A program made the position numbers and the translations under genes. The notes below the pieces were generated by a model. That model was not told the DNA's origin. It was given only the letters and a program-made list of their open reading frames with translations, and did no database searches. This document shows positions 41,702 through 58,426 of a DNA stretch of 64,000 nt, piece after piece. Origin of the DNA: an uncultured Erysipelotrichaceae bacterium (GTDB lineage Bacteria; Bacillota_I; Bacilli_A; RF39; UBA660); contig CADCJQ010000002.1 in assembly GCA_902801795.1 (NCBI GenBank), positions 1,925 through 65,924 on the forward strand. Direction: 5' to 3'. The stretch's first letter is position 1. Each line of letters opens with the position of its first letter.

Positions 41702-41705
41702 TAAA

Positions 41706-42076: not shown

Positions 42077-42094
42077 GAAGGTAGGTAATGAATT

Positions 42095-44932
42095 ATGGCA
42101 GCAAAAGACATTGATTTAGATTTAACGGATGTTGAATTAGCTAAAAAAGAAATAGAGGCTGCTTCTGAAGCAATAGCAGAAGGAGAAACCGCACTAGAAG
42201 AAGTTACTTCCGATAATCCTAATGTGCAACAAGAATTAGTAGAAGCACAGAACGTTGCGAGGGAGGCAGCACAAGATGCAAATAATATGCAAGAACAATT
42301 TAATAATTTTATTAATAATGCTAAAGATAAAATAAAGAATATTGCAGCTAGTTTTTCAGATTTTTTTGCAGGAAAACATGTTGAAAATGATATATCCGAA
42401 ACGAGTCAAACAGAAGTAAAAAGCAGTGAAGAAAGAATGGCTGATGTAAAAGACCGACTACAACAAGCACATGAAAAATTTCAAGAACAAAAAGATATAA
42501 TAAATAAAGGAAAAGGTGCTGCAGTTAGTATTATAGAAGATAAATCATCAATAACACTTGATGAATATCAGTCATTGGTTAATGAAGTGTTAGATTTATA
42601 TTTTAGTAAAGAGCAAGATTTGGCTGGTAAATTTAATAGCAATATTAAAATACAATTGGAAAAATTATATTTAGAAACTGCACCGAGAATAATTAATTCT
42701 GTGATTGATAGTGTATACTTAAGACAAACACAAAGAAAACTACAAAGTATAGAAGAAATATCTGAGACTGATGTTATATCTCTTAATGATTTTACATATG
42801 GTACAAAAGAGTACAATAAAGGTTTGATAGATTATAAAAACCATATTGCAGAAAATGTATCTCATTCAACAAAAGAATTTGATTTAAATAAGTATTATTC
42901 TAGTGAACAATTAGAAAATAAATCAGATTACGAAAAAAGTTTATTAGTATTGACAAATAGGGATGATTCTGCTTTTATACTTGGTAATGCGATATTAGAG
43001 TATTTCGAAATTATTGATGAAAAAAGTACTTATGAATTAAATGTTGAATTAAAAACTGTATTTAAAAACATTGATATAATAAAAAATCTTTTTTCTGTTG
43101 AATATGAAACTGCTGAAGATGTAGAGTCCTCTTATTATACTTGGAGAAATAATAAAGAAGAGACGAGCATAGGTTATCATTATTTAAATGATTTTATGGA
43201 TGTATTATTACCTCCATATTATAGTTTTTTTGAAGATAAAAATAAATTGGATGCAGAAAAATATGAGAAAATAACCAACTTTTCTCAAAGATTTAGTGAT
43301 ATAACAGAAGAAGAAATAAATAAATTAAAAGAGGACTATGAAGAAAGTGGGTCATTAGATGATGAAGTTTACGAAACGATGGCTAAACTTAATAAAATTG
43401 ATTTGCTTGATTTAGTGGAGGATTATTATTATGTTCGTGAATTTCAAACGTTAGATTTGATTTTACCTTATACTAGGGTTAATCTTGAAGTAAATGGTGA
43501 TATATATTATGTTAATATGAATGATATTGCGAATATGTATGAAAATGAAGATACTAATTATAGTACTAATTTGATAATTAAGTTGGTAGAAGATTCAAAA
43601 TTAACAAATACTAATTTAGAAGATGATGCTGTTTTCTTGAATATTAGCGGAATAAATATTCAAACATATTTGAGTAGCATAAAAAAAAGTATAGATGATA
43701 CAGGAAAATTTGATTATTTGCGTATGCTTGCAACATCTCATATAGGAGAAGATGATAAAGAAAAAAATATTATAATAAATCAAAATGGATTGGATTTTGA
43801 AACTAATGTGCAAGAAATAAAAGATTATTATGATGTATATGGCTATGAAGAATTATATCTAATTAAACATTTATATGATAATAATAGAATTGATGATAGT
43901 AATTATAATATTAATATTGCCGGTAGGCCAATTAATTGCTCATTAAAAGAATTATCTATATATTTTGATGAAGAAAATAAATTTGATTTAGAAAAGTTTG
44001 TTGATGAATTTGAACTTTCTGAATCAGAATATATGTATTTGTATAATTACAAATTAAATAATCCAGTTAACTTAGAAGATTTGAAAATTACCGCGATTAA
44101 TGAAAAGACCAGGGATTTTTATGAAAAATATGGAAGTGTTGATCAAGGAGGATTAAATAAACTATTTGAAACTAATACAGATGAGTCAAAGGAGGAGTGG
44201 AATCGATTATTAGATTTTTGCAAGGATAAATATCATTTAGCTGGTGACACTGCTTTAAGTATTATGAGATCATTAGATTCTGTTGGAGCATGTTCATATG
44301 CTGATATGTGTAATATTATTTATGAGATGTATGATTTTGATAATGAAAAATTTATGCATGATTTTAGTTATCCAATAGTTAATGAAAATGGAACACTTAA
44401 TAGTAATCAACTATTATTAGATTTATATATTTATCAAAATATTGGTGATGCAAATAATCCAGGCAGATTATTAATAAAAGATACAGAAGGAAATTTACAT
44501 GTGAATGAAAATTATCTTGATGAATACAACGAAAATTTGGATGTACATAATCAAGAGTATATGTCAGGATATGGCTATTTTAAATTAGATAAAATGAAAA
44601 GTTTTCTTCGTGATAATAATTGTAGTATTGAAGATTATCATAATTATCAATATAAAATTATTTATTTTTATGATGAAAAATATAAAGAAGAAATGAATAA
44701 AGCTTTAAATTCAGATTCTATTGTATCATTAAGTTTTGGTGATACGGCAGAGTATTATTTTTTAGGCGATAATCCATATTATTATCACATGAATAATGAT
44801 GGACACGCCGTAACCGGTGTTGGTATTACCGAAGATGGAATTATAGAAAGAACTTGGGGGGAAGTTGGGTGGACTCCCTTTGATAGCATTGGTTATGGTA
44901 ATGCTGTAATAATTTATAAAAAAGGAGAATGA
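42095..44932 (+). CDS. Large protein: helical N-terminal region, long middle region, C-terminal papain-like Cys/His pattern (candidate secreted effector/toxin)
   Basis: 945 aa with no signal peptide or TM. The C-terminus has GACSYADMC (Cys at nt 44291) and DGHAVTGVG...RTWGEVGW (His at nt 44804), which resembles the C...HAV.GY...NSWG layout of the papain fold. Confidence 0.55.
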   Translation: MAAKDIDLDLTDVELAKKEIEAASEAIAEGETALEEVTSDNPNVQQELVEAQNVAREAAQDANNMQEQFNNFINNAKDKIKNIAASFSDFFAGKHVENDISETSQTEVKSSEERMADVKDRLQQAHEKFQEQKDIINKGKGAAVSIIEDKSSITLDEYQSLVNEVLDLYFSKEQDLAGKFNSNIKIQLEKLYLETAPRIINSVIDSVYLRQTQRKLQSIEEISETDVISLNDFTYGTKEYNKGLIDYKNHIAENVSHSTKEFDLNKYYSSEQLENKSDYEKSLLVLTNRDDSAFILGNAILEYFEIIDEKSTYELNVELKTVFKNIDIIKNLFSVEYETAEDVESSYYTWRNNKEETSIGYHYLNDFMDVLLPPYYSFFEDKNKLDAEKYEKITNFSQRFSDITEEEINKLKEDYEESGSLDDEVYETMAKLNKIDLLDLVEDYYYVREFQTLDLILPYTRVNLEVNGDIYYVNMNDIANMYENEDTNYSTNLIIKLVEDSKLTNTNLEDDAVFLNISGINIQTYLSSIKKSIDDTGKFDYLRMLATSHIGEDDKEKNIIINQNGLDFETNVQEIKDYYDVYGYEELYLIKHLYDNNRIDDSNYNINIAGRPINCSLKELSIYFDEENKFDLEKFVDEFELSESEYMYLYNYKLNNPVNLEDLKITAINEKTRDFYEKYGSVDQGGLNKLFETNTDESKEEWNRLLDFCKDKYHLAGDTALSIMRSLDSVGACSYADMCNIIYEMYDFDNEKFMHDFSYPIVNENGTLNSNQLLLDLYIYQNIGDANNPGRLLIKDTEGNLHVNENYLDEYNENLDVHNQEYMSGYGYFKLDKMKSFLRDNNCSIEDYHNYQYKIIYFYDEKYKEEMNKALNSDSIVSLSFGDTAEYYFLGDNPYYYHMNNDGHAVTGVGITEDGIIERTWGEVGWTPFDSIGYGNAVIIYKKGE

Positions 44933-44938
44933 TGATAG

Positions 44939-45493
44939 ATGGAAGAGAAATATAGAAAAATTTTCTTCAGATATTTATTTAGAATATTAGATTTAAAAAA
45001 TCTTGAAGATTATTTAATGAGTAATGGTATTAATTATATTGCTAGTGAAAATAATATGTGTAATGAAGAAAAAACTTGTTATGCTTATTCTAAATATTTT
45101 TATCTATTAAATGAAATAAATTTATTAATGTTAAATGAAGAAGAAATGATGTATTTAAGAGTTATAAAATCAGATGGGGATTTAAGTGAAAGAACAATAA
45201 ATTTTATAAAGAATACTTATAGAAAAGTTATGTTTAGTAATTCAAGAGGAAGAAATAAATATTATGGTGCGATATCAGAAAGTTTTATGGCAAAAGATAA
45301 TCAAATAGTATTAGGTTTAAAAAGAGATGAAATGGGATTTTCAGCGCATAAATTAAAAACAATGGAAGAAATACAACATGATGACATAATAATTTCCCAA
45401 GTAATAAAAAAAATAGAAGAAAATAAATATAATATTGATATAAAAGTAATTACCTATAATGAATTGTTTGAAAAGCATAAAAGAGGTAATTAG
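44939..45493 (+). CDS. Hypothetical cytoplasmic protein (candidate cognate immunity or accessory protein)
   Basis: 184 aa. Begins 7 nt after the 945-aa gene and is followed by the repeated terminator. Confidence 0.4.
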   Translation: MEEKYRKIFFRYLFRILDLKNLEDYLMSNGINYIASENNMCNEEKTCYAYSKYFYLLNEINLLMLNEEEMMYLRVIKSDGDLSERTINFIKNTYRKVMFSNSRGRNKYYGAISESFMAKDNQIVLGLKRDEMGFSAHKLKTMEEIQHDDIIISQVIKKIEENKYNIDIKVITYNELFEKHKRGN

Positions 45494-45520
45494 TATATAA
45501 TAATTATTAAAATAATGTAG

Positions 45521-45562
45521 TAGACATAGTTGACATTTTATACTATGTCTATTTTGTGTAAA
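45521..45562 (+). terminator. Copy B of the 42-nt terminator repeat
   Basis: Identical to 41706-41747. Confidence 0.75.
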
Positions 45563-45628
45563 TTAAAACTTTGTAAATAGTAATTGAAAAATAAAAAAAT
45601 ATATGATATTATTTAAATAGGTGATGAT

Positions 45629-45952
45629 ATGGCTAATTATTTAGTAAAATTTAATGAACTTAAATCAAAAAATAATAAAGAAAAGGAATTACTTAGTCAA
45701 ATTGAAGAATGTATAAATAACATATCTAATATAATAGAACAATTAGATTGGGAAGGACCTTCGAAAGAGAAGTTTATTTATAGATTTAATATCTTTGTTA
45801 GTGATTTAAATAAAATGTTAGATAATTTGAGAAGTTGTCTTAATGTAACAGAGCAGTTTCATGATAGATTTTATGAAGCACATCGTAATATAAATAAAAG
45901 ATTAACGAATTTTCAAGATGAGATGGTGAATATATGGAAAATACAAGGATAA
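45629..45952 (+). CDS. WXG100-like small helical protein
   Basis: 107 aa. A W-E-G motif at residues 41-43 (nt 45749-45757) sits between two predicted helices, followed by the ...F...F pattern. Confidence 0.55.
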   Translation: MANYLVKFNELKSKNNKEKELLSQIEECINNISNIIEQLDWEGPSKEKFIYRFNIFVSDLNKMLDNLRSCLNVTEQFHDRFYEAHRNINKRLTNFQDEMVNIWKIQG

Positions 45953-46239
45953 AATGTACTATTGATGATATATCAAAAATGAAAAATATTTTTGAAGAAA
46001 ATAGTAATAAAATATTAGAATGTCTTAAAGTGATAGATAAAGATTATGAAGAAATGCCCAACATTTTAAATACGCCTAATTCAAATAAAATAATTCCTCG
46101 TTTTCAGGATTATGTAAAAGAACAAGAAAAGTATATGAATCAAAATGTTATTTATTATACAAAAGTTTTTGATACAATTATTAATGAGTATAATGAATTT
46201 TTTGTTGATACTAAAGAAAAAGTTGGAGGGGAAAAATAA
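45934..46239 (+). CDS. Small helical protein (possible WXG100/Lap-type partner)
   Basis: 101 aa. Overlaps the previous gene by 19 nt. No WXG motif. Confidence 0.4.
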   Translation: MENTRIKCTIDDISKMKNIFEENSNKILECLKVIDKDYEEMPNILNTPNSNKIIPRFQDYVKEQEKYMNQNVIYYTKVFDTIINEYNEFFVDTKEKVGGEK

Positions 46240-46838
46240 TGGCAGATCAAAATTACGATGAATATTTAGCAAAACAAGAACGAATAAGAGCTCTTGAAAA
46301 TGAAATTGCTGCACTTCAAACAGAAATTGATGATATTAATGCAAATATTGTTAAATTAACTACTGAAAAAGGAAATGCTATTAATCAAAAAAATGAATTA
46401 CAAGAAATAAAAGAAGATAGTTACGTGCTTTTAAATGAAACAAAGGAATTGTTAAATAATTTTAATTATAATGTTACTGCATGTTCTGATAATATAAATA
46501 ATATTGTTAGTAGTCATAAAAATGTTTCAAATACTAATTTGAATTTAAGTAGCAAAGATATGAATATTCAAAAAATTGGTGAATTGAGTAATAACATTAC
46601 AGATAACTTATCAAAAATATCTAATAACATTTTAGCAATGAAAAATAGTATGGATGGAAATGTTAATGAAAAAATTCAAAATCTTGAAAATATCATAAAT
46701 GATGCTCAAAATAAAATAAATGTTTTAACAACACAAATTGATAATTTAACACAGCAAATAGAAGTTTTGACTAAAATATTAGAAACTAAGAATATGGAAT
46801 TAGAAACAAAACGAGCAGAACTTAACGCTCTTTTATAA
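46239..46838 (+). CDS. Coiled-coil protein
   Basis: 199 aa with heptad-rich N- and C-termini. ATG overlaps the upstream stop. Confidence 0.5.
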   Translation: MADQNYDEYLAKQERIRALENEIAALQTEIDDINANIVKLTTEKGNAINQKNELQEIKEDSYVLLNETKELLNNFNYNVTACSDNINNIVSSHKNVSNTNLNLSSKDMNIQKIGELSNNITDNLSKISNNILAMKNSMDGNVNEKIQNLENIINDAQNKINVLTTQIDNLTQQIEVLTKILETKNMELETKRAELNALL

Positions 46839-46864
46839 TTTTAAAGAAAGGTTGGTTTATAAAT

Positions 46865-48160
46865 ATGGATAATACAGAAAATGAAATTATGGAATATGCT
46901 ACTAATGCTGTTGAAGTGTTAAATGGTTCATATTCTAATAGTCAAGATAATTTATCAAACATGGGTTGTAATAATAAATTTCAAGAATTTGAAGAAAAAT
47001 TTAATATGCTTGATACCAAATATGATAATGTTTTAGATAAGGGTAAAGCATATGATAACGATGCTAATCAAACTAATAATGTTAAAAACAATAATTTAAT
47101 ATCTGATAAGCATAAAAGTATAAGTAGTAAAAATATTTTAAGTGATGCCTTTGCTAATATACAAAAAGATGAAGAGCAGATATTCTTTGATTTTAAAGAA
47201 ATGATAAGAATAAATAATGAAAATAATATGGAAACAGAAAATGCTGATAATAGTATTTGGAGTATGATAGGTAAATCGTTAGATAATTTGTTTACAAATC
47301 TAGTTGGTGGGCTTGTTTCTTCAGCTAAGGCAGAGAGTGGGGGAATGGTAGTAGCAGATGCAGATTTCTTTAGAGATATTGGTAAAAGTATTGATAGTAA
47401 TGGCAATGTTAAAGTAGGAGGTTATACATATAATGTTAATACACATAAGTTAACTATAGAAAATAGAGAAACAGTAGTTGACTATTATATACCAACAGGA
47501 TATACTAAAGATGGATTGAAGAGAGCTTATACAATAACTTGGTTGTGTGCACAAAATGAAGGTTATGTAACTAGTGAAGATATGTCAAAAGTAAATTCAC
47601 CTTGTGTGATTGTTATCCCTCATCATGTTGAAGGACAATCACTAAAGAGTCAAGTGATTATGGCAGATAATGTAGTAGATAGTACAGATTTTATGATTAA
47701 AACTATTAATCAAGATTCGTATTGTAAAAATGGACTTGGTGGTGATTCCCTTGGAGGCGGTTCTGTTCCCAAAATAATGGCAACTAAACGCGGAAAAGAA
47801 ATATATAATGCAGGACAAGTTAATAATTATCCAGCCGTTTTTGCTTCAATAAATGTTGATGGCATAAGAAGTGATAAAGGCGGAAAAGAGAGTAATGCCG
47901 ATAGTGTTAAATTGAATGCTGAGGATTTTATTAATTTAGATGGTAAAGTAATAATATATTCATATTCATCTAATGGTGGTGGTGATGATCATACAGTTAG
48001 TGCTGCAAAAAGTTCTGTTATTGAATTCAACGAAAACACTACAGGTACTATTATATGGGATGAAAACAGCCCGTCATATTATATCGGAGGTCATTCTAAA
48101 TATCATGATATGCGTGTCGATTGTATGAATAGTGCTGATATGTTTTCATATTTGCCTTAA
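46865..48160 (+). CDS. Hypothetical protein with a C-terminal globular domain containing GGDSLGGGS (possible serine-hydrolase nucleophile motif); candidate effector
   Basis: 431 aa with no signal peptide. GDSLG at nt about 47744-47758. Last gene before rlmB. Confidence 0.4.
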   Translation: MDNTENEIMEYATNAVEVLNGSYSNSQDNLSNMGCNNKFQEFEEKFNMLDTKYDNVLDKGKAYDNDANQTNNVKNNNLISDKHKSISSKNILSDAFANIQKDEEQIFFDFKEMIRINNENNMETENADNSIWSMIGKSLDNLFTNLVGGLVSSAKAESGGMVVADADFFRDIGKSIDSNGNVKVGGYTYNVNTHKLTIENRETVVDYYIPTGYTKDGLKRAYTITWLCAQNEGYVTSEDMSKVNSPCVIVIPHHVEGQSLKSQVIMADNVVDSTDFMIKTINQDSYCKNGLGGDSLGGGSVPKIMATKRGKEIYNAGQVNNYPAVFASINVDGIRSDKGGKESNADSVKLNAEDFINLDGKVIIYSYSSNGGGDDHTVSAAKSSVIEFNENTTGTIIWDENSPSYYIGGHSKYHDMRVDCMNSADMFSYLP

Positions 48161-48169
48161 GGAGATTTT

Positions 48170-48871
48170 ATGATAGTATCAGGAAGAAACAATGTTAAAG
48201 AAATATTAAATAATTATAACGAAAGTTATGGAATAAAAAGGGCTATATTACAAAAGAATTTTAATGAGAATGATATATTATCATTATTAAAAAAATATAA
48301 TATACCTTTTTCTTTTGATGAAAAAAATAATTTAGATAAACTTGCCAAAAATAATCATCAAGGTGTATTATTAGAGATAGGGGAGTTTTGCTATACAGAA
48401 TTAGATAGTATTATTAAGAATAAAAATAAATGTACTATTGTAATTCTTGATCATTTAGAAGACCCACATAATTTAGGCGCTATTGTAAGAACTTGTGAAG
48501 CAGCTGGTATTGATGGAATAATCCTTCCTAAAAATAGAAGTGTTTCGGTTAATGAAACAGTTTTAAAGACAAGTGTAGGAGCCATCTTTAATGTAAAAAT
48601 ATGTCAAGTAACTAATTTATTAAATACTATTAAATATTTAAAGAAGAATGGTTTTTGGTTATATGGTGCTGATATGAGTGGTGAAAATTATTGTGATGTT
48701 AATTATGCTAATAAAACATGTCTAATAATTGGTAATGAAGGAAATGGATTAGCAAGAATAGTTCATGAATCATGTGATTATATAGTAAGTATCCCTATGA
48801 TAGGAAAGGTTAATAGTTTAAATGCTTCGGTAGCAGCTGGAATACTAATTTATGAAGTAATTAAAAGGTGA
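48170..48871 (+). CDS. rlmB: TrmH/SpoU-family 23S rRNA 2'-O-methyltransferase (RlmB/YacO-like)
   Basis: DPHNLGAIVRTCEAAG, IGNEGNGL and SLNASVAAGILIYE SPOUT motifs. Confidence 0.85.
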   Translation: MIVSGRNNVKEILNNYNESYGIKRAILQKNFNENDILSLLKKYNIPFSFDEKNNLDKLAKNNHQGVLLEIGEFCYTELDSIIKNKNKCTIVILDHLEDPHNLGAIVRTCEAAGIDGIILPKNRSVSVNETVLKTSVGAIFNVKICQVTNLLNTIKYLKKNGFWLYGADMSGENYCDVNYANKTCLIIGNEGNGLARIVHESCDYIVSIPMIGKVNSLNASVAAGILIYEVIKR

Positions 48872-48872
48872 T

Positions 48873-49487
48873 ATGATGTATAACAACATGAATGATTATG
48901 AAATAATTTATATGGTATGTGATGAGAAAGATAATAATTATAATATTTTGTATAATAAATATAAACCATTAATAAATAAAATAGCTGAAAAGTATAAATA
49001 TGCTTTTAAAAAATTTGGTTATGAAAAAGAAGATATTATGCAAATAGGATATTTAGTATTATATAAAACATCATATATGTATAATGAAAATAATTGTTCG
49101 ATGTTTTATACATATTTTAAAAATGCATATGAAAAAGCCTTATTAACAGAATTAAGAAATAACAGTACTAATAAAAAGGAAGTATTAAATAATGCTTTTT
49201 CATATGATATTACTATTCCAAATAGTAATCTATCATATATTGATTTAATTAAAGATAATAGTTATCAAGAAAATGATGATTATATCAAATTAATAATTAA
49301 TTTTAAAAATTCAATGTCATTTGAATTAGGATGTGTTTTTGAACTATTTTATAATGGCTATGATTATGAAGAAATTAGTTTATTATTAGATAAAAATAAT
49401 GATGAAATAAAAAATAGTATGAAAGAAATAAAAAGACATGCCTTGACATATAGATATTTATTTTTAAAAAAATGTGTGTTACAATAA
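48873..49487 (+). CDS. Divergent sigma-70 family factor (SigH/ComX-like by position after rlmB)
   Basis: 204 aa. Region-2-like EDIMQIGYLVLYKTSYMYN...FYTYFKNAYEKAL. The rlmB-sigH synteny is that of Bacilli. Confidence 0.5.
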   Translation: MMYNNMNDYEIIYMVCDEKDNNYNILYNKYKPLINKIAEKYKYAFKKFGYEKEDIMQIGYLVLYKTSYMYNENNCSMFYTYFKNAYEKALLTELRNNSTNKKEVLNNAFSYDITIPNSNLSYIDLIKDNSYQENDDYIKLIINFKNSMSFELGCVFELFYNGYDYEEISLLLDKNNDEIKNSMKEIKRHALTYRYLFLKKCVLQ

Positions 49488-49507
49488 TTTAGTATTTGAG
49501 GTGAATT

Positions 49508-50035
49508 ATGAATAAGAAACAGATGTTAAAAGAACAAAAAAGATTAAAACAAGAAAGAAGAGATGCAGAAAAGTTATTTGGTGATAATAATGGAGTAAAT
49601 AATCTTGTTAAGATAACTATCGGAGTAGTTGGATTTATTTTAATAGCTTTTGCCTTAATTAATATTTTTAATGGTAATTGGAATATCTTTAATAAAAGTA
49701 ATAAAAAAGCAACTGAGATTGATCCAAAAATGGTAATGGTAGGAACAATGTTTAATAAAGAAGATGGGGAATATCTTGTTCTTGCATATGATATGCAAGA
49801 TAATAATAGTGTTTATGCATATTTAGCAAGTAATTATTATGGAAGTCCTAATCTATATTATTTAGATTTATCAAGTGGATTTAATAGTAATTTTATTGGT
49901 GATAAAACTATTGTTTCAGAAGATTTATCTAAACTTAAATTCTCTTCTGCAACGCTTATGTTAATAAATAAAGATAAAATTACTAAGTCATATACTACAG
50001 AAGATGAAATTGTAAATTATTTTAATAATAAATAG
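49508..50035 (+). CDS. Single-pass membrane protein (unknown function; an anti-sigma role is only positional speculation)
   Basis: 175 aa. Basic N-terminus, one TM (ITIGVVGFILIAFALINIF) and an extracytoplasmic domain. Confidence 0.5.
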   Translation: MNKKQMLKEQKRLKQERRDAEKLFGDNNGVNNLVKITIGVVGFILIAFALINIFNGNWNIFNKSNKKATEIDPKMVMVGTMFNKEDGEYLVLAYDMQDNNSVYAYLASNYYGSPNLYYLDLSSGFNSNFIGDKTIVSEDLSKLKFSSATLMLINKDKITKSYTTEDEIVNYFNNK

Positions 50036-50060
50036 TTGTCAAACGATGACTATTTTTTTT
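50029..50060 (+). terminator. Rho-independent terminator
   Basis: aaatagttgtc / gatgactattt stem (two G-U pairs) followed by T9. Confidence 0.6.
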
Positions 50061-50117
50061 TAAATACTTGTAAAATTATATTATTATGGTAAAATGTATT
50101 TATAAGGTAGGAAAGAT

Positions 50118-52208
50118 ATGAAGGATAAAAAGAGTTTATATTTAGCATTTATTTTAGGATTATTTATTGTTGCTGTAGGGATGATTTCTTTTATTGTTTT
50201 TAGTAATGTTAAAGAGAATAATAAAGTATTTATAAATAATGAAGTACAATTAGGAGATGATTGGAATAATTGTGTTACGATTTCCTCAAATTATAAAACA
50301 TCAACTAGAGGTAGTATATCATATGGTGGAAATACTTATACAAGTGTAGCGCCAGCATCAGGAAATACATGGTATAAATTTGAAACTAATACTAATTGTG
50401 ATAAGGGATATTATTGTTATACTTTAAAAAAATGTACATTAAATAGTTCATCAACTCCAGCAGGAACAACAGCAGATGGCAAATGTAAACCAGGATATCG
50501 AAAATCAAATGGTCAATGTGTTGTTTGTCCAAATGGAAGATGGAGTGATGGTGGTGATGCTACTACTTGTTTTGCTTGTGGTGCGGGATTTATTTGTAAA
50601 GATGGCACACGATCACAATGTCCAAGTAACACTTATACTAAAACTGATAGTTCATCTGAATGTACTTTATGTAATGGAACTGTAGAAAAAAATAAGTGTG
50701 TTGGAAATGAAACATCTTGTAGTGAAGGATATAGATTAAATAATGGTAGTTGTGTTGCATGTGGAGACGGATATTGGAGTAATGGTGGAACAGTTACTAG
50801 TTGCTCTCCTTGTCCAGCGGGATACTCATGTCAGGGTAACAAAAAGACTGCTTGTACAGATAATACTTATTCAGCAGGTGGCGGTAGTAAATGTTTAACA
50901 TGTAATGGTAAAGTAAATGATGCTCATACGTCATGTGAAGTATCGCAAGCATCACAGTGTTCAAAAGGTTATAGATACGATTCTACAAGTAAAAAATGTG
51001 TATATTGTAGTGGAATTACTGAATATCAACCAAATGCAGGACAAACAAAATGCCTTTATTGTACAAATGGTAAAGTGGCGAATGCTGATCACACGGATTG
51101 TATTAGTGGCGCATGTCCTTTAGGATATTATCTTGGAAGTGGTGGAAATTGTATTACTTGTACTGTGGGACATTATTGTAATAATGGTTCTACTCAAACA
51201 AGTTGTAGTGATGGTTATTATCAGAATTTAACAGGACAATCATCATGTAAGAAATGTTCATCTAATGAAAAATCTAATGCTAATCATACTGCTTGTGTGA
51301 AAAAATCAAGTAGCAATCCATCATCATCCGATAAATGCTATAGAGATACTAATAATGATTATCAAGTAGGTAATTATAATAATCAACCTGGATATACATT
51401 AGTTTCAAATGAAACTAAAAATTGTAATAATATCAAAGTTAAGAAAGTTGATAGTAATACAACTGTGTTAACGGGAGCAACTATAACATTTACGGATAGT
51501 AGTGTTCCTCCTGTTACTAGAACTTTTAATATTGGTGAAACAGATATTAATATGACAAATCCTGGTACTTATACAATAGTAGAAACTGTTGCCCCAACAG
51601 GATATCAAATAGATAATACCCCAATTCAAGTAATTGTTAATGATGATGGAACAATTAATGTTACTGGGGGAACAAATATTGATTTAGGAACTAGTAACGG
51701 TACAAGAAATATTACTTTATCTATTATTAATAATAATAGAAGTCCAGAACCAACTGCTGAAGAATATTGTTATGTAAAACGTGGAAATGGTACTAATAAT
51801 GAGTATTGTTTTGGAAATACAGATACAAGTTGTGTAGGGTATAGTGAAGTTGTTTCTGGAAGAACAAGAGAAACTTGTACAGAAGATATTGCTTGTTATC
51901 AAAAAACAGACGGAACTTATACTGTTGGAAAATTTGATGGACAATTTGGTTATCAATATTTTGGTACTATTTGTCCTGCATGTTATGAAGATGCTAATGG
52001 AAACTATCGTTGGACGAATACACCTAATGCTAACGAAAGACCTGTTGCTGAAATTAATACTATTGACAAGTGTGTAACACCAGCGAAAATCTCAAATAAT
52101 AAGATTATCTATATTATATTAATCGTAGTTGTTGCAATTGCATTATTTTTAGTTATTAAGTCATTAAAGAAAGGTAATGGCAATAATAATATGTCAACAG
52201 AGTATTAA
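50118..52208 (+). CDS. Cysteine-rich bitopic surface protein (CXXC/ephrin-receptor-like repeats, Cna-B-like domain, conserved C-terminal Cys module, TM anchor)
   Basis: 696 aa. N-terminal TM followed by NNEVQLGD. Repeats of the form C..CP.G.W/Y...G....C..C (for example GYYQNLTGQSSCKKC). IKVKKVDSNTTVLTGATITF...GTYTIVETVAPTGYQ (about nt 51430-51740). CYVKRGNGTNNEYCFG...CPACYEDANGNYRWTNTP. C-terminal TM plus a tail ending STEY. Confidence 0.75.
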   Translation: MKDKKSLYLAFILGLFIVAVGMISFIVFSNVKENNKVFINNEVQLGDDWNNCVTISSNYKTSTRGSISYGGNTYTSVAPASGNTWYKFETNTNCDKGYYCYTLKKCTLNSSSTPAGTTADGKCKPGYRKSNGQCVVCPNGRWSDGGDATTCFACGAGFICKDGTRSQCPSNTYTKTDSSSECTLCNGTVEKNKCVGNETSCSEGYRLNNGSCVACGDGYWSNGGTVTSCSPCPAGYSCQGNKKTACTDNTYSAGGGSKCLTCNGKVNDAHTSCEVSQASQCSKGYRYDSTSKKCVYCSGITEYQPNAGQTKCLYCTNGKVANADHTDCISGACPLGYYLGSGGNCITCTVGHYCNNGSTQTSCSDGYYQNLTGQSSCKKCSSNEKSNANHTACVKKSSSNPSSSDKCYRDTNNDYQVGNYNNQPGYTLVSNETKNCNNIKVKKVDSNTTVLTGATITFTDSSVPPVTRTFNIGETDINMTNPGTYTIVETVAPTGYQIDNTPIQVIVNDDGTINVTGGTNIDLGTSNGTRNITLSIINNNRSPEPTAEEYCYVKRGNGTNNEYCFGNTDTSCVGYSEVVSGRTRETCTEDIACYQKTDGTYTVGKFDGQFGYQYFGTICPACYEDANGNYRWTNTPNANERPVAEINTIDKCVTPAKISNNKIIYIILIVVVAIALFLVIKSLKKGNGNNNMSTEY

Positions 52209-52210
52209 GA

Positions 52211-52239
52211 AAGAATGAAAAAAATTTTCATTCTTTTTT
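52211..52239 (+). terminator. Rho-independent terminator
   Basis: aagaatgaaaa / ttttcattctt perfect 11-bp stem followed by a T-run. Confidence 0.75.
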
Positions 52240-52307
52240 CTATATTTTGTTGATTTAGTTTCTGCTTTTAAGTATAATAATATTATAAGAAGGATAGGTA
52301 TTAGTAT

Positions 52308-53891
52308 ATGATAAATTCTAAAATAAAATATATTGTGCTTGGATGTTCAATAATTGTATTATTATTTTTATTTTTAGTTTCTTTTAGTAACAATGGTAAA
52401 AATAATGTTCAAAATTTTTTAGATAATAATTACGATAAAGAACAATTAGCTGATGTTACATGTATGGTAACTTCAGGACCAATAAATGTTTATGGGGAAG
52501 ATGGGGCTTATAGTTCGGTATCAAGTTGTTCTGATGTAAAAAAAGAAGGAAATTGTTATGTTAAAAAAAATACTGTTGACACAAGTTATTGTGGTCCAGA
52601 TGATAGTGCTGATTGTTATTTATATTGGAAATATTATGTAAGTTGTAGTGGAACATCTATAACCTGTTCACCAGGTTATTATATTCCATCTGGTTCATCT
52701 CAATGTAATCAGTCATGTCCTGCTGGTTATAAATGTCCAGGGGGCACATATTCTATAAATAGTAGTTCATCAAGCTTTGAAAAATGTCAGGGAACTACAT
52801 ATAGTACAGGTGGTTCATCTCAATGTAATACCTGTAGCGGGACTCTTGTTGTAAATAATGGCTTAAATGTAGGTTGTAATATTCAAAATAATGATAAAAT
52901 AATTTGTTCACCAGGATATTATATATCATCAGGCTCAACTAAATGTGATCAGTCATGTCCAGCGGGATATAAATGTCCAGGAGGAACATATTCTGTAAAT
53001 AGTAGTTCATCAAGTATTGTAAAATGTCAAGGAACTACATATAGTACAGGAGGTTCATCTCAATGCAGTACGTGTAGTGGAACTCTTGTTGCAAATAATG
53101 GCTTAAATGTAGCGTGTGATATTCATAATATTACATGTAATATAGGAAATCATTTAAAAAATAATAATTCATGTACCCCATGTGAACCAGGAACATATGG
53201 CGGTGGCGGTAAGAATACAAGTTGTGATAGTTGTCCATCACCATATCAAGATGGAGGCGCTGGAGCCAAATCAATAAACGAATGTGAAGCATATGTTAGT
53301 GCAGGATATAAAGTACAGTTTGCGGGAACAAGTAGTAAAACATATGTATGTTCTGTTGGGTATTATTCAAAAGGTGGAACAGTTAAGTATGGAAATTCCT
53401 TTGATTGCACAAAATGTCCAGAAGGTTCAACAACTAAATATGTAGGAAGTAAAAGTGAATCTGATTGTAATATTTGTTTAACTGGTTATCATAAGTTACC
53501 AAATGGACAATGTACAAAAGATTTAACAGATAAAGATAAAATGCCATGTGATCCGGGATTTTATCAAGAGACTGAAGGTGGTGGTGAAAAGTCATATTCT
53601 GTAGGTAAAACAGCAGTTTGTTCGACATGTCCAGGTGAAATAGTAGAAAGTTCTAGTGGGTTACATATTGGTTGTAATATGGGAACACCTAAACATACAG
53701 CAAATGCAGCATGTAATAACGATGGAACAGTATCATGTACTGGATGTGATGTTATGCAACAAAGATATAATAATACTACCAAAAAAAATGAAATAATAGT
53801 TCAGACGCAAGATGATTATAAATTTTCTGATGGCTCGACAATTAAAACAGTAGTTTGTGAAATAAAAGAGTACAAAAGATTTAACAGATAA
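52308..53891 (+). CDS. Cysteine-rich surface protein, N-terminal portion (signal/TM plus CXXC repeats; lacks the Cna-B, C-terminal module and anchor)
   Basis: 527 aa. N-terminal TM followed by EQLADVTC. Two 80-aa tandem repeats. CTPCEPGTYGGGG..C and CTKCPEGSTTKYVGSKSESDC motifs. Ends in a unique tail with a stop inside the second copy of a duplicated segment. Confidence 0.65.
   Translation: MINSKIKYIVLGCSIIVLLFLFLVSFSNNGKNNVQNFLDNNYDKEQLADVTCMVTSGPINVYGEDGAYSSVSSCSDVKKEGNCYVKKNTVDTSYCGPDDSADCYLYWKYYVSCSGTSITCSPGYYIPSGSSQCNQSCPAGYKCPGGTYSINSSSSSFEKCQGTTYSTGGSSQCNTCSGTLVVNNGLNVGCNIQNNDKIICSPGYYISSGSTKCDQSCPAGYKCPGGTYSVNSSSSSIVKCQGTTYSTGGSSQCSTCSGTLVANNGLNVACDIHNITCNIGNHLKNNNSCTPCEPGTYGGGGKNTSCDSCPSPYQDGGAGAKSINECEAYVSAGYKVQFAGTSSKTYVCSVGYYSKGGTVKYGNSFDCTKCPEGSTTKYVGSKSESDCNICLTGYHKLPNGQCTKDLTDKDKMPCDPGFYQETEGGGEKSYSVGKTAVCSTCPGEIVESSSGLHIGCNMGTPKHTANAACNNDGTVSCTGCDVMQQRYNNTTKKNEIIVQTQDDYKFSDGSTIKTVVCEIKEYKRFNR
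52659..53130 (+). repeat. Two tandem 240-nt coding repeats
   Basis: Copy starts at 52659 and 52899. Each encodes CSPGYYI.SGS..C.QSCPAGYKCPGGTYS.NSSSSS..KCQGTTYSTGGSSQC.TCSGTLV.NNGLNV.C. Confidence 0.85.
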
Positions 53892-55710
53892 AGATAAAAT
53901 TCCATGTGATCCGGGATTTTATCAAGAGACTGAAGGTGGTGAATGTCTACCTTGTCCAGCGGGATATGCTTGTGATAATGATAAAATTGCTTGTAAAGGA
54001 ACAAAATCATATTCTGTAGGTAAAGCAGCTGTTTGTTCGACATGCCCAGGGGAAATAGTAGAAGATTCTAATGGATTGCATGTTGGATGTAATTTGAAAA
54101 ATTCAGAGTTGCAAAGCAATATTAAATGTATGAATGGAGGAACGTATGGCGATACATGTGAACCATGTCCAGATAATTATAATTATTCTAATAGTAATGT
54201 TCCAACAATAGGGAATTGCCAAAGAAAGCTTGCTGCTGGATATGAAATGATTTTTGCATATGCAGAGCCAACGAAATGTTCTAAGGGATATTATAGTGAA
54301 GAAAGAATTGTTAATTACGGTAGTTCATCAAGATGTACTTGGTGTGGTTCAGGAAAAACAACTAATGATATGGGGGCTACGTCAATTAATGATTGTATTG
54401 ATGCGAATAATTCTAATGCACCCATAACTCCGGAAAAAGATAATATAGATTTATCTAAGATAAAATGTAGTCCTGGTACTGGCTGGAGTGATCAAGAAGG
54501 TAAGTGTATTCCTTGTAGTGGTAATACTATTCAAAAATATACTGCTCATCGTTCATGTGAAGCTTGTCCAAGTGGAAAAACGGCTAATAAAGCAAAAACT
54601 AATTGTGATTTAACATCATGTAATTTAGGATACTATATAGAAAATGGAAAATGTGAAAAATGTAGTAAAGGTCATTATTGTGATGGTAAAAATAGTAAAG
54701 TCTGTGATGATGGATCTTATCAAGATGAAGTAGGACAATCTAGTTGTAAGCAATGTGAAGGTAATAAAAAATCTAATTCTGATCATACTTCATGTGTGAA
54801 CAAAACAAGTAGTAGTGGAAATTCAAATACCAATATTGTACAAGAAAAATGTTATCGTGATAGTAACAATGATTATGTAGTAGGCAATTATGATAATCAA
54901 GTTGGTTATGTCTATATATCAGATTCAATTATTAATTGTAATAATATAAAAATTAAAAAAATTGATTCTAATAATGTTACTTTGGCTGGTGGAACAATAG
55001 TTTTTGAAGAGGTTCTAAATCCTAATAATAATAGAACATTTATAATTGGAGAAACTGATATTAGTATGTTAAATTCAGGTAGTTATTTAATAAAAGAAAC
55101 TATTGCACCAATAGGCTATTCTTTAGAAACTAATGAAATAAGAGTAACAGTTAATGGAAATGGGACAATAACTATTAATAGTAATGCCAATATTAATTTA
55201 AATGCAACTAATGGTACAAGAAATATTAAAATTGATTTAATTAATATTTTAGATAGTACAAATAATGAGGAAGAAAAATGTTACGTAAAACATGAAAAAG
55301 ATGGATTTAATACATATTGTTATGGAGATAATACAACATGTCCAGATTATGAAGAAACTATTGAAGGAAGAAATAAGGATACTTGTGATGAAGAACTTGC
55401 ATGTTTTCAAAAACAAGATGGATCTTTTGTAACAGGAAAATATAGTAATCAAAATGAATATCAATATTTTGGAATGATGTGTCCAGCATGTTATGAAAAG
55501 AATAATGGTGATTATTATTGGACGAATACTCCTCTTTCTAATGAAAAATTAATAAAGGAAATTAGTTTATCGAATATGTGTTATGCTCCTCAAAAAAATA
55601 GTAGTAAATTAATATATTTAATATTATTAATTTTGGTGGTAATTATATTATTTGTAGTAATAAAATTTAGAAAAAATAAAAACAACAATAGTTTTTCAAC
55701 AGATTATTAA
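53866..55710 (+). pseudogene. C-terminal portion of a cysteine-rich surface protein (no start codon or signal of its own); apparently the +1-frame continuation of 52308-53891
   Basis: The frame is open from 53866. The track start 54076 is a TTG that encodes Leu within NGLHVGCN. Contains CXXC repeats (GSYQDEVGQSSCKQC, GKTTNDMGATSINDC), a Cna-B-like IKIKKIDSNNVTLAGGTIVF...GSYLIKETIAPIGYS, the conserved C-terminal Cys module, a TM and a tail ending STDY. Confidence 0.6.
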
Positions 55711-55724
55711 AATGAGGTGAAAAT

Positions 55725-56813
55725 ATGATAAATGATAAAAATGTAAAATATTTAATAATTGGATGTTTGATTTTTGCACTAGTGATTACGACATCGCTAT
55801 TTATTAAAGATGAACTTATGGATAATGATTATAATAATGAAATAAAATTAGCTGATGCTGTAACACAGTGTATGGATAGTTGTATGAATGCTGGTGTAGA
55901 GCGCTCTATTTGCCAAGCTAGTTGTTCAGGGGCTAAGTCATCGAATAGTCAATCATCTGGTCAAACATCCGTTGCAACAAAATGTATAGATAGTTGTATG
56001 AATGCTGGTGTAGAGCGCTCTATTTGCGAAGCAAGTTGTTCAGGGGCTAAGTCGAATAGTCAATCAACGGGTCAATCATCTATTGTAACAAAATGTATAG
56101 ATAGTTGTATAAATGCTGGTGTAGAGCGCTCTATTTGCGAAGCCAGTTGTTCAGGGGCTAAGTCGAATAGTCAATCAACGGGTCAATCATCTATTGTAAC
56201 AAAGTGTATAAATTCGTGTGTGAATGCTGGTGTGGATCGATCTACTTGTGAAGCAAGTTGTTCAGGGGCTAAGTCGAATAGTCAATCATCTCAAAATAAT
56301 AATTCAAATAATAATTCAAATAATAGTTCGAATAACAACAATACAAATAGTAATAGTCAACCACAAGAAGAAACTGCACAATGTTATGTTAGAAGAGATT
56401 CAGGTATAAATAATGAGTATTGTTATGGTACTAGTGAAACGTGTTCAGGATTTAGTGAAGTAGAAGTTGATAAAACAGAATCTGATTGTAATGAAAATGA
56501 TGCTTGTTATGAAAAAGCTGATGGAACATATGTTTTAGGAAAGTTTGATAAACAATCAGGATATCAATATTATGGAAGTACATGTCCAGGATGTTATGAA
56601 AAGGATAATGGAGATTATTATTGGACAAGTACACCAGCGACAAATGAAAAAGTAGTTCCTGGAATCAATACTTCTAATAAATGTATTACACCAAGTAAAT
56701 CTATTTTTAGTTCTAAAAAAATTATCTTTATTGCCTTAATAGTTGTTATATTGATAGCATTATTTGTAGTATTGAAGTCATTAAAGAATAATAATAAAAA
56801 TATTAATTATTAA
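55725..56813 (+). CDS. Short member of the cysteine-rich surface protein family (tandem 37-38-aa Cys repeats, Asn/Ser-rich linker, conserved C-terminal Cys module, TM anchor)
   Basis: 362 aa. N-terminal TM followed by NNEIKLAD. Four copies of KCIDSC.NAGVERSICEASCSGAKSNSQS. CYVRRDSGINNEYCYG...CPGCYEKDNGDYYWTSTP. TM plus a tail ending NINY. Confidence 0.75.
   Translation: MINDKNVKYLIIGCLIFALVITTSLFIKDELMDNDYNNEIKLADAVTQCMDSCMNAGVERSICQASCSGAKSSNSQSSGQTSVATKCIDSCMNAGVERSICEASCSGAKSNSQSTGQSSIVTKCIDSCINAGVERSICEASCSGAKSNSQSTGQSSIVTKCINSCVNAGVDRSTCEASCSGAKSNSQSSQNNNSNNNSNNSSNNNNTNSNSQPQEETAQCYVRRDSGINNEYCYGTSETCSGFSEVEVDKTESDCNENDACYEKADGTYVLGKFDKQSGYQYYGSTCPGCYEKDNGDYYWTSTPATNEKVVPGINTSNKCITPSKSIFSSKKIIFIALIVVILIALFVVLKSLKNNNKNINY
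55866..56290 (+). repeat. Tandem coding repeat array, about 3.8 copies of 111-114 nt
   Basis: The Cys codon phase recurs at 55869, 55983, 56094 and 56205. Copies 2 and 3 differ at only a couple of positions. Confidence 0.9.
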
Positions 56814-56850: not shown

Positions 56851-56928
56851 CTATAACGTCAAATTTAAGAAAACCTCTTTAATAAATAAGAAATTTATTT
56901 TATAATAAATGTAGAAGTAGGTGGTGTG

Positions 56929-57723
56929 ATGGTTAAAATACTTGAAGTTAAAAATTTGAATTATCAAATGTTTAAAAATATTAATTTATCATTTGAATGT
57001 AACACCATTTATTCAATTGTTGGACCAAATAATTGTGGAAAAACGTTACTTTTTAAATTATTAACAGGATTAATTAATACAGAAAATTATATTACATGTT
57101 ATAATATTACATTAAGTGATTTTAATAAAAATGAGTATATCAAAAATATTGGGGTGGTAGAATGTGTTAATAAAAAAAGTTTTCTTTTTAAAAATGTAAT
57201 TGATGAACTTGTATTTCCTTTATATAATTTAAATTATTCTAAAAGAGTAAGTTTAAATAGAATTAATAAAATGTTAGAATTATTTAAATTAGAAAATATT
57301 ATAAAAAAAAACATTAATGATTTAACTCTTTATGAAAAACAAAAATTATTGATTATTATTGCATTATTGCATAAACCTAAGGTTTTACTAATCGATAGTG
57401 CCTTAAATATTTTTGGTAGAAAAGAATGTCATGAAATAATGAACGTTTTAAGAAAATTAACTATTGATGAAGATTTATCCATTATTAATTTTACAAGTAA
57501 TCTTAATGAAAGTTTAGATAGCGATTATCTATTATTACTAAATAATTATCAAATATTAAAGGTTATTAAAAAAAGTGATTTAATTAATAATGATAAATTA
57601 TTTTATGAAAATAATTTAGAAATTCCTTTTATAATTGATTTGAACACTAAATTAAATTTATATAATTTAGTTAATAATACTTATAATGATGTGAAAGATT
57701 TGGTAAATGAGATATGGCAATAG
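56929..57723 (+). CDS. ecfA1: ECF-transporter ATPase EcfA1-like (by position) with degenerate signature, Walker B and H-loop
   Basis: Walker A GPNNCGKT is present. LSGGQ is replaced by LTLYEKQ, Walker B reads LLIDSA (no catalytic Glu), and no H-loop His is visible. Position matches ecfA-ecfA'-ecfT-truA-rplM-rpsI. Confidence 0.5.
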   Translation: MVKILEVKNLNYQMFKNINLSFECNTIYSIVGPNNCGKTLLFKLLTGLINTENYITCYNITLSDFNKNEYIKNIGVVECVNKKSFLFKNVIDELVFPLYNLNYSKRVSLNRINKMLELFKLENIIKKNINDLTLYEKQKLLIIIALLHKPKVLLIDSALNIFGRKECHEIMNVLRKLTIDEDLSIINFTSNLNESLDSDYLLLLNNYQILKVIKKSDLINNDKLFYENNLEIPFIIDLNTKLNLYNLVNNTYNDVKDLVNEIWQ

Positions 57724-58426
57724 TATTTAAAAACGTTAAGTTTAATAATAATAGTTTAATAATAATAGAAATATTTATCTAGATTCAAATATAATAATTG
57801 GTGTTATGGGGGATAATTATAGTGAATTTTTTAAATCATTAAGTGGACTAGATATTTATGTAATAGATAAAGAAAGTGAATTTTTTGAAAAGAAGGTATC
57901 GGATGAATTAATAAAATGTTATAAAAAAAAGAATGATGTTTCTTTAGACGAAGCCATTAATATAATAATTAATAGATTGTCTTTATCAAAGGATTTTTTA
58001 AGTAAGAATATTAAAGAACTATCTCATAGTGAAAAAAGAATTCTTAAATATTTAATATTATTTTTGATAAATCCTAAAATAATAGTAATTGATGAACCAT
58101 ATTTATATTTAGATTATGATATGAAGAAAAAAATAAGACTATTAATTAAAGAGATTATTAAAGAAAGTAAAAAAACAATTATAATAGGTAGTTGTGATAG
58201 TGATATTATTTATGAATTATCTCAAAAAATAATGTTAATAAATAATCATTCATTTTTATATGATGATACTAAAAAAGTATTTGAGAGTATTGAAGTTTTG
58301 AATGATTATAATATAGATGAACCGGAAATTGTTAGATTTGTAAGATTAGCCAGAGAAAAAGGTATTAATGTGGATTATACGAATGATATTCGTGATTTAA
58401 TAAAGGAAGTGTATAAAAATGTTTAA
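57714..58426 (+). pseudogene. ecfA2: EcfA2-like ATPase, frameshifted near the 5' end and lacking Walker A
   Basis: ATG 57714 (overlapping the ecfA1 stop) gives MAIVFKNVKFNNNS..., then a stop at 57780. The rest (NIYLDSNIIIGVMGDNYSEF...LSHSEKR...IIVIDEP) is in another frame that is open from 57755. GVMGDNYSEF occupies the P-loop position. Confidence 0.45.

Follow-up and report, generated by a model that had tools for sequence, protein, structure and literature searches.

The gene at 52308-55710 of the window, which is the whole 64,000-nt stretch of DNA analyzed here, is predicted from its sequence to encode a membrane-anchored surface protein, and its reading frame is broken between positions 53869 and 53870. 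We consider it somewhat probable that the window carries a private allele in which a deletion of about 38 nt (a length of 3n+2) at this joint shifted the frame, and that the lesion is an ordinary one, specific to the strain or to the assembly. The main comparison was with L086 (ENA ERZ27280724), an independent assembly of another sample. In order, the protein comprises a signal or anchor segment, an N-domain, Cys-rich modules of two alternating types (A, about 65-80 aa, and B, which is longer), a SpaA-type Ig-like domain, a Cys-rich C-terminal module, and a transmembrane helix. The features of the region are as follows.

50118-52208, plus strand: paralog 1, intact, 696 aa, with the same family architecture as the split gene
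52250-52278, plus strand: promoter-like site TTGATT-17-TATAAT, from a consensus scan and a by-eye read (consensus match only)
52308-53891, plus strand: head ORF, 527 aa, with N-terminal hydrophobic signal/anchor, family N-domain, and Cys-rich A and B modules (Ephrin_rec_like)
53484-53583, plus strand: left copy of the long module repeat, retained part; 28 nt followed by the 72-nt copy 1 (53512-53583)
53583..53584, plus strand: 57-nt gap of the window (AATGTC...TGTAAAG), present in L086 copy 1
53584-53869, plus strand: rest of module A' and diverged module B' (...CTGCDVMQQRYNN...VVCEIKE), 100% identical to L086
53869..53870, plus strand: frame break and putative deletion joint; L086 continues with ATGCCAAGAAGGTTATCATAA (CQEGYH...)
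53870-53941, plus strand: copy 2 of the 72-nt repeat, out of frame for the head ORF and in frame for the tail
53942-53998, plus strand: 57-nt segment in the window's copy 2; both copies carry it in L086
53872-55710, plus strand: tail coding frame, 612 codons and stop, with A and B Cys-rich modules, SpaA domain, C-terminal module, transmembrane helix, and short tail
55725-56813, plus strand: paralog 3, intact, 362 aa, with its own GAGGTG ribosome-binding site

The promoter-like site comes after an AT-rich hairpin and T-run 3' of paralog 1; downstream of it, approximately 10 nt 5' of the head ATG, lies a purine-rich stretch resembling a ribosome-binding site (AAGAAGGATAGG). The hydrophobic N-terminal signal or anchor of the head occupies about 52329-52385. 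The N-domain of the head is homologous to that of P0001, a distant homolog in which the N-domain, Cys-rich repeats, SpaA domain, and C-terminal module are found in one 1895-aa ORF; this bears out the suggestion of the first-pass annotation that head and tail are the halves of one family-type gene. In the tail, the SpaA domain is located at about 54943-55182, the conserved Cys-rich C-terminal module at about 55270-55599, and the transmembrane helix at 55609-55662; the gene-caller version of the tail, P0006, starts at TTG 54094. Pfam matches to Ephrin_rec_like (PF07699) were found in the tail, paralog 1, and the head, and exceeded the gathering score in the head (40.6 bits) and the tail (52.3 bits). 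SpaA (PF17802) exceeded it in the tail (37.7 bits) and in paralog 1 (55.6 bits). Paralog 3 is probably co-transcribed with the split gene, because it begins only 14 nt past the tail stop.

The repeat at the break is part of the native architecture, the protein being a periodic array of Cys-rich modules. A blastn comparison within the window aligned 53512-53583 with 53870-53941 (71 of 72 positions identical, E = 8e-31) at an offset of 358 nt, or 1 mod 3, as had been reported. Copy 1 is translated in the head ORF as TKDLTDKDKMPCDPGFYQETEGG; copy 2 is read there out of frame as EYKRFNR, followed by TAA at 53889-53891. The tail frame has a TAA at 53863, stays open between 53866 and 55710, and is translated as TKDLTDKDKIPC...; its earliest ATG, GTG, or TTG is the TTG at 54076. 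The wrong-frame entry into copy 2 and the open, startless tail thus stand as first described. The overlap of the two frames, given earlier as 25 nt, is 26 nt, and joining head and tail yields 1134 aa, close to the earlier estimate of about 1130 aa. No sequence resembling a ribosome-binding site was found before TTG 54076, and no signal peptide was found in the tail. Copy 1 does lack a Cys-containing stretch present in copy 2, but this measures 57 nt (19 codons, 4 Cys) and not the 60 nt claimed; it is in frame and encodes ECLPCPAGYACDNDKIACK and supplies the bases that complete the next Gly codon. Beyond this gap the copies stay similar for 94 nt (86%; 53588-53681 vs 54003-54096) and then fade. 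The idea that a 358-nt unit was recently duplicated exactly in tandem is ruled out, since identity between the copies falls to 86% past the 72 nt and no relationship remains after that. At the frame break itself, neither a hypermutable simple-sequence tract nor an exact tandem duplication was found; the joint is blunt, with no repeat unit and no microhomology. The closest run of eight A (53782-53789) lies upstream of the joint, and the tail frame has stops from there to 53866. No donor for the segment 53584-53869 was found elsewhere in the window.

L086 differs from the window at 8 positions in 13,466 nt over 40118-53583 (99.94% identical) and at none over 53583-53869. Exactly after 53869 it departs into 21 nt that are found nowhere in the window, even with 3 mismatches allowed, so that the protein reads ...EIKE-CQEGYH; the L086 ORF over the joint reads ...VVCEIKECQEGYH and is stop-free for the 7 remaining codons to the contig end. 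The last 11 of these 21 nt equal window 53484-53494, 5' of copy 1 (CLTGYHKLPNGQC-TKDL), and the window contains no copy of the 10 unique nt, ATGCCAAGAA. The L086-type joint is spelled AAAAGA/ATGCCAAGAAGG and that of the window AAAAGA/GTACAAAAGA; the joint at the window's 57-nt gap is GGTGGTG/GTGAAAAG. The 28 nt before copy 1, GGTTATCATAAG...GGACAAT, encode GYHKLPNGQ and the first base of a Cys codon, and the left repeat copy would begin with them, at 53484, judging from the end of L086 and from two other contig ends. L087 (Logan, k = 31), with zero differences from the window over 7,981 nt, ends at 53513 (53484 + 29), and L088 (k = 87) ends at 53570 (53484 + 86). The window sequence itself predicts a k = 31 break at approximately 53541, its first repeated 30-mer beginning at 53512. 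Both ends therefore suggest a repeat that starts at 53484, as expected of an intact allele. The opposite end of L087 (45533) coincides with a 30-mer repeated in the window, so the k-mer break reasoning holds there; 2 of the 4 Logan contig ends examined match no repeat in the window, and the k-mer argument is therefore suggestive and not proof. L090 starts at 53931, a position for which k-mer logic gives no explanation.

Joining L086, 17 inferred nt, and window 53870-55710 produced one ORF of 1165 aa. In this rebuilt allele the copies lie 453 nt apart (0 mod 3), in frame, and share a tract that is 157/158 identical. The allele was rebuilt and not observed end to end, as no independent contig runs from module B' into copy 2. 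At least 21 nt of the missing segment are observed in L086; the total of 38 nt includes the 17 inferred nt and draws on contig-end coordinates, and the frames demand a missing length of 3n+2. L086 would be expected to continue through copy 2 and the tail, and the deletion is putatively present in cells as well as in this contig.

In the intact allele, two adjacent module boundaries would share the near-identical tract of about 158 nt, as recent gene conversion would leave. In the window allele the left tract would then be short of its last 57 nt, an in-frame loss, and a piece of about 38 nt, made up of the end of module B' together with the first 28 nt of the right tract, would be missing. The latter loss would fuse ...GAAATAAAAGA straight to GTACAAAAGA... 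and shift the frame by one base, and translation from the normal start would stop 7 codons past the joint (TAA 53889). The 527-aa head would keep the signal sequence and lose the SpaA domain, the C-terminal module, and the membrane anchor, while the 1.8-kb tail would remain untranslated on the same mRNA because it lacks both a start codon and a ribosome-binding site. The deletion would probably leave a truncated head and a dead tail. The lesion appears to be recent, because the 612 tail codons contain no stop. The offset of 358 nt (1 mod 3) would arise from the deletion of about 38 nt together with the second, in-frame gap of 57 nt. The first-pass annotation held that the duplication had split the gene; instead, the copies are neighboring modules, and the break appears to be a deletion of about 38 nt just left of copy 2 that is absent from L086.

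In a comparison with near-identical contigs over approximately 22 kb, the window showed not a single 1-nt indel but three private larger ones, namely the 57-nt gap, the gap of about 38 nt, and an exact 14-nt tandem duplication (57739-57766) in an ecfA2-like gene; none of the three private joints is present in any independent contig. Such a set of indels is more in keeping with slippage or deletion mutations than with base-calling noise, and the lack of 1-nt indels shows that the window is not a noisy long-read consensus. Split genes elsewhere in the window, a sign of a noisy assembly, were found in 0 of 10 tested ORF pairs. Against a deletion in cells, the blunt joint without microhomology is less typical of replication slippage. 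It is possible, albeit doubtful, that the organism has the intact allele and that contig building, polishing, or merging removed both missing pieces (57 nt and about 38 nt) at the edges of the near-exact internal repeat of about 158 nt and added the 14-nt duplicate. Three other assemblies break in the repeat zone (L086 at 21 nt past 53869, L087 at 53513, and L088 at 53570), the window's contig alone crosses it, and both gaps lie exactly at the edges of the 72-nt core still common to the copies. The L087 end is also compatible with an intact B' end in a sample otherwise identical to the window, and L091, from the same sample (ERR3201407), is without the 14-nt duplication. The contig ends suggest that the reads of ERR3201407, whose contigs otherwise match the window, include the intact B' end; if so, the window joint may be a minority variant or an error of the contig. 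However, De Bruijn-graph assemblers use k-mers taken from reads and do not normally create blunt 38- or 57-nt deletions or 14-nt tandem duplicates. Smaller errors fare worse. If an otherwise complete gene had merely lost 2 nt of a TGT (Cys) codon, GAG-TGT-ACA becoming GAG-T-ACA, or had a miscounted AAAA homopolymer, either correction would restore one ORF of 1133-1134 aa, but this is very unlikely given that L086 shows at least 21 nt, and not 1-2 nt, gone at exactly that point. Two further candidates, 'CEIKEY' as a true B-module motif cut at a GTAC microhomology and a deletion fusion of two tandem paralogs, were ruled out: CEIKEY has no significant match to a profile of 11 B modules (-1.7 bits), the native sequence in L086 is CEIKE-CQEGYH, and TAC is a rare Tyr codon here (29 vs 456 TAT).

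The remaining alternatives would give the broken frame a function. Programmed +1 ribosomal frameshifting at C-AAA-AGA (53874-53879), in the 26-nt overlap, would yield a 1133-aa protein with the junction EIKEYKDLTDK. The tail frame is open throughout, re-pairing of tRNA-Lys with AAA would be possible following a +1 slip, and one A fewer in the four-A run gives one 1133-aa ORF; nevertheless we regard this as extremely improbable. The site is not conserved, as L086 has GAATGCCAAGAAGG there and its frame simply goes on, and the distant homolog P0001 is a single ORF; the slippery context arises from the deletion joint itself. The next zero-frame codon, AGA, is the commonest Arg codon (147/237), so no slow codon is expected, and AGA-TAA gives no re-pairing. 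No Shine-Dalgarno-like (GGAGG-like) stimulator lies upstream, no Rfam match at E <= 1 was found over 52000-56000, and the RNA structure is unremarkable (fold z = -1.17). It is also quite unlikely that the gene is a hypervariable contingency locus, in which module repeats yield frequent indel alleles that switch the anchored form off and the 72-nt copies recombine to a 1014-aa anchored variant. Removal of 53512-53869 (358 nt) does leave one continuous ORF of 1014 aa in which an A module is complete, two indels lie within 400 nt in genomes otherwise differing by only 0.06%, contig ends hint at both alleles in one sample, and the gene is within a tandem array of three variable surface-protein paralogs. 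Yet in-register recombination of coding repeats restores the frame automatically and is uninformative, the 38-nt loss and the 358-nt rescue are both one-way, and the site has no simple-sequence repeat, exact tandem duplication, invertible element, or recombinase. Thus, of the explanations listed in the first-pass annotation, a recombination scar or pseudogene and an assembly indel survive, whereas programmed +1 frameshifting and a reversible ON/OFF switch find no support. That the 158-nt module repeat is a hot spot repeatedly generating indel alleles in the gut population, with some cells secreting the anchor-less head and others carrying the anchored protein, is likewise unlikely. If it were true, RecA-type excision of 358 nt between the 72-nt copies would produce the shorter in-frame anchored variant, and the locus would represent a recombination-driven, largely one-way contingency mechanism in a new Cys-rich surface-protein family of uncultured gut Bacilli.

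Searches for relatives returned few sequences. In a word-index protein search, the repaired 1134-aa query found only P0001 (32% identity) and two eukaryote-type proteins, an alignment of the C-terminal module returned P0004 and P0005, and a junction-centered query found only the window's own tail. Genome contigs scanned with the module alignment gave nothing, as did metagenome contigs scanned with the tail; metagenome contigs scanned with the alignment gave four loci, either distant or partial. Among these four is L082, a relative with 86% identity that spans only paralog 3 and ecfA1. A HMMER scan of 1.84 billion representatives revealed no homolog above 48% identity besides the window's own tail. 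By exact look-up, the window ORFs 52308-53891, 54094-55710, 56926-57723, and 57806-58426 are not on record, nor are four rebuilt full-length candidates and six products of other contigs. The gene family forms tandem arrays in a gut Bacilli lineage of 25% GC and is rare in the public data searched.

The split itself carries little weight, whether it reflects an out-of-frame deletion in yet another surface-protein gene or a contig error in a repeat, and the true gene probably encodes a single protein of about 1165 aa. Annotators should be aware that this MAG contig has three private indels, two of which break genes. The family may merit attention of its own, as it combines eukaryote-like Ephrin-receptor-type Cys repeats with SpaA, a new C-terminal module, and a transmembrane anchor.

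Among known systems, the split gene is comparable to frameshift-disrupted (pseudogenised) alleles of repeat-rich bacterial surface proteins and adhesins. Shared features are a frame break inside an internally repetitive gene, a premature stop within a few codons, a downstream part that is open and startless, and a counterpart in a near-identical genome (L086) that is intact as far as its contig end; an indel length that is not a multiple of three would be a further one. In contrast to those alleles, the lesion here lies between two copies of a putatively recent conversion tract and may be a contig error, and the gene family is uncharacterized and seldom represented in the databases searched. 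A second comparison is with cap3A of the Streptococcus pneumoniae type 3 capsule locus, which is turned OFF by an exact tandem duplication and reverts when this is excised (Waite et al. 2001, as summarized in PMC11163986). The likeness is that two direct repeats flank a segment whose exact excision restores the frame. The differences are that the copies here are old diverged modules (86% identical past the 72-nt core, then unrelated), that the break is a putative deletion, and that excision gives a shorter protein and not the original one; the window's exact 14-nt duplication (57739-57766) is formally closer to the cap3A type than the split gene is. The split gene also resembles prfB (RF2), with its +1 frameshifting, in that a zero frame running into a stop overlaps briefly with a +1 frame encoding the remainder of the protein. 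Sites of the prfB type place a re-pairable P-site codon beside a slow or stop A-site codon, with a Shine-Dalgarno-like element upstream and a conserved shift site; none of these is found at the joint. The tail and paralog 1 match both Ephrin_rec_like proteins (PF07699, GCC2/GCC3-type) and SpaA/Cna-B-type proteins of Gram-positive bacteria (PF17802) in Pfam. Unlike either group, the family here combines both domains with a novel Cys-rich C-terminal module and has a C-terminal transmembrane anchor instead of an LPXTG signal. With its signal, CXXC-rich ectodomain, transmembrane helix, and short tail, the split-gene family has an overall layout that may recall the variant surface proteins of Giardia.

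The window is a chromosomal segment of 25 % GC whose AsnRS is 81 % identical to its best match, in an uncultured-bacterium bin, and 79-73 % identical to the next best, in Bacilli MAGs; the source is an uncultured gut lineage of Bacilli. Three tandem paralogs are flanked upstream by rlmB and a sigH-like sigma factor gene, and downstream by ABC-type (ECF-like) ATPase genes:

50118-52208, first paralog
52308-55710, second paralog, the split gene
55725-56813, third paralog

All three have a hydrophobic signal at the N-terminus; towards the C-terminus, a conserved Cys-rich module precedes a transmembrane helix. Both long paralogs contain Cys repeats of the Ephrin_rec_like type (PF07699) together with a SpaA domain (PF17802), and membership in these two domain families was confirmed. 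The family at 50118-56813 and at loci L081-L085 consists of uncharacterised surface proteins laid out as an N-terminal signal, Ephrin_rec_like (eukaryote-like) or other Cys-rich repeats, often SpaA, the C-terminal module, a transmembrane helix and a short tail. The module is new and reads CYVK...YCYG...ACYQKxDGTY..GK...Q..YQYFG..CPACY...YxWT; very few relatives of the family occur in the public data searched. One of them, on an ENA scaffold (L081, 1600-1660), is seemingly split into ORFs of 456 and 240 aa; the break lies at a run of N (X in translation) and is thus a scaffolding gap rather than a biological split. Elsewhere in the window, an RpoD-type sigma factor ORF (7759-9918, 719 aa) extends about 240 residues past region 4 and more than 100 before region 1.2; ahead of it, and sharing 38 nt with it, lies a second ORF of the sigma-70 family (6834-7796).

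Within the second paralog, re-derived coordinates and frames agree with the repeat and two-frame layout described in the first-pass annotation. A direct repeat of 72 nt occupies 53512-53583 (copy 1) and 53870-53941 (copy 2), with 71/72 positions identical, an offset of 358 nt and a blastn E value of 8e-31 within the 64-kb window. In the head (52308-53891, 527 aa), copy 1 is translated as TKDLTDKDKMPCDPGFYQETEGG; at copy 2 the frame is off by one base, and the product ends as EYKRFNR before TAA at 53889. The frame of the tail contains many stops up to TAA 53863, after which 53866-55710 is open. As had been noted, the tail has no usable start: the earliest candidate is TTG 54076, before which no ribosome-binding site was found. 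Copy 1 lacks a stretch following the repeat that copy 2 has, which measures 57 nt (19 codons) and not the 60 nt first reported; beyond it, the copies are 86 % identical over 94 nt, after which the similarity fades out.

Only one sizeable homologue was found, P0001 (1895 aa), a single ORF that has the N-domain of the head, Cys-rich modules in alternation, SpaA and the C-terminal module. This indicates that head and tail are halves of one family-type gene, as the earlier annotation had proposed. No close orthologue of the split gene was found in any collection searched, and its rebuilt and partial products have no exact match on record. Ahead of its start, the split gene carries a promoter-like site of its own and a purine-rich stretch resembling a ribosome-binding site, and paralog 3 starts 14 nt past the tail stop; transcription of the tail is therefore probable, with or without translation.

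Near-identical contigs from three other assemblies were retrieved by exact look-up of intact neighbouring genes. L086 (ENA ERZ27280724) differs from window 40118-53583 by 8 mismatches in 13,466 nt, has 57 additional nt (AATGTC...TGTAAAG) after 53583 that only copy 2 has in the window, is 100 % identical over 53583-53869, and departs exactly after 53869. There it reads ...GAAATAAAAGA/ATGCCAAGAAGGTTATCATAA and ends, whereas the window reads ...GAAATAAAAGA/GTACAAAAGATTT. The L086 ORF has no stop in 546 codons and ends ...VVCEIKECQEGYH. The 21 nt of L086 beyond 53869 occur nowhere in the window; their last 11 equal 53484-53494, the lead-in to copy 1 (C-LTGYHKLPNGQC-TKDL).

Two further contigs, L087 (Logan, ERR3201407, k = 31), identical to the window over 7,981 nt, and L088 (ERZ1029116, k = 87), end at 53513 and 53570, in both cases 53484 plus about k-1. 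These ends match the prediction from a repeat starting at 53484, whereas the window's own repeat start at 53512 would predict a k = 31 end near 53541. The other end of L087 is also consistent with k-mer logic, since it falls on a 30-mer repeated in the window, at 41718 and 45533, inside a dispersed 80-nt repeat (41685-41764 and 45504-45578, about 86 % identical). Because neither end of the Logan contig L091 is explained, the argument is no more than suggestive. Over 5.2 kb, L088 shows 34 differences from the window, every one of them in 48425-49417 (rlmB 3' end and sigH-like gene), a cluster that looks like a recombination tract imported between strains.

No independent contig crosses the joint 53869/53870 from the right. 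L090 starts at 53931, within copy 2, and shows one synonymous difference from the tail; L089 and L091 begin inside paralog 3, at 55859 and 56296. Assemblies break here at four tandem units of 111-114 nt (55827-56288, up to 94 % identical) encoding the repeats CIDSCMNAGVERSICEASCSGAKSN.

An intact allele was rebuilt by joining L086 to window 53870-55710 through 17 nt taken from 53495-53511. It forms a single ORF of 1165 aa, in which the copies lie 453 nt apart (0 mod 3) as part of a 158-nt tract with 157/158 identical positions. Alternative joints distinguish the window from this allele in 53.3-54.2 kb: AAATAAAAGA/GTACAAAAGA versus AAATAAAAGA/ATGCCAAGAAGG, and GAAGGTGGTG/GTGAAAAGTC versus GAAGGTGGTG/AATGTCTACC. 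Relative to it, the window lacks 57 nt at the 3' end of the left tract, in frame, and about 38 nt (3n+2) comprising 10 unique nt and 28 nt at the start of the right tract, and the latter gap causes the frameshift. The 72 nt may be the remnant of a recent conversion tract between adjacent module boundaries, which would account for 99 % identity there against 86 % in the flanks; deletion of the homology left of the joint would explain the position of the frame break, right where similarity begins. The likely product is a 527-aa head with a signal sequence and without the SpaA domain, C-terminal module or anchor, and the tail is likely untranslated. The absence of a stop in the tail's 612 codons suggests a recent event. 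Another candidate, in which a B-module motif 'CEIKEY' was cut at a GTAC microhomology, gained no support from the module profile and was then refuted by L086.

The earlier interpretation is partly supported: this is one gene split in two by a scar or an assembly indel, and the exotic readings gained no support. We consider it somewhat probable that the window holds a real private allele. A contig artefact stays viable, although we judge it rather unlikely: three other assemblies break in the repeat zone, both gaps hug the 72-nt core, contig ends suggest an intact end of the diverged module B' (ending at 53869) in reads from a sample with contigs that are identical to the window elsewhere, and the window has a private 14-nt duplication in a downstream gene. 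However, joints of this sort are not something that graph assemblers normally create, and over about 22 kb compared the window has zero 1-nt indels. A 1-2-nt lesion is contradicted by the 21 nt of L086 that the window lacks.

An ON/OFF switch by recombination between the copies is improbable; a 1014-aa ORF is indeed regained when 358 nt are deleted, but such rescue is automatic for in-register coding repeats and irreversible. Programmed +1 frameshifting is hardly credible: the joint itself creates the site, which L086 lacks, AGA is the major Arg codon, and around the site no Rfam match and no notable RNA structure was found.

The downstream duplication is an exact 14-nt tandem repeat (AGTTTAATAATAAT twice) at 57739-57766, in the 5' end of an ecfA2-like gene (ATG 57714). 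Neither L089 nor L091 has it, and apart from this L091 is identical to the window. The duplication changes the reading frame after codon 13 and leads to a stop at codon 23; the gene is intact in L089 (232 aa), and the window retains a 206-aa ORF (57806-58426) restarting at Met27.

The split gene is unlike prfB-type recoding. It also differs from the cap3A-type phase variation of Streptococcus pneumoniae, where the gene reverts when an exact tandem duplication is excised (PMC11163986). Formally, the duplication in the ecfA2-like gene is of the cap3A type, or else a contig error. In its workings, the split gene resembles an ordinary frameshift-deletion allele of a surface-protein gene rich in repeats, a kind of lesion already known, of which the window provides a new instance.
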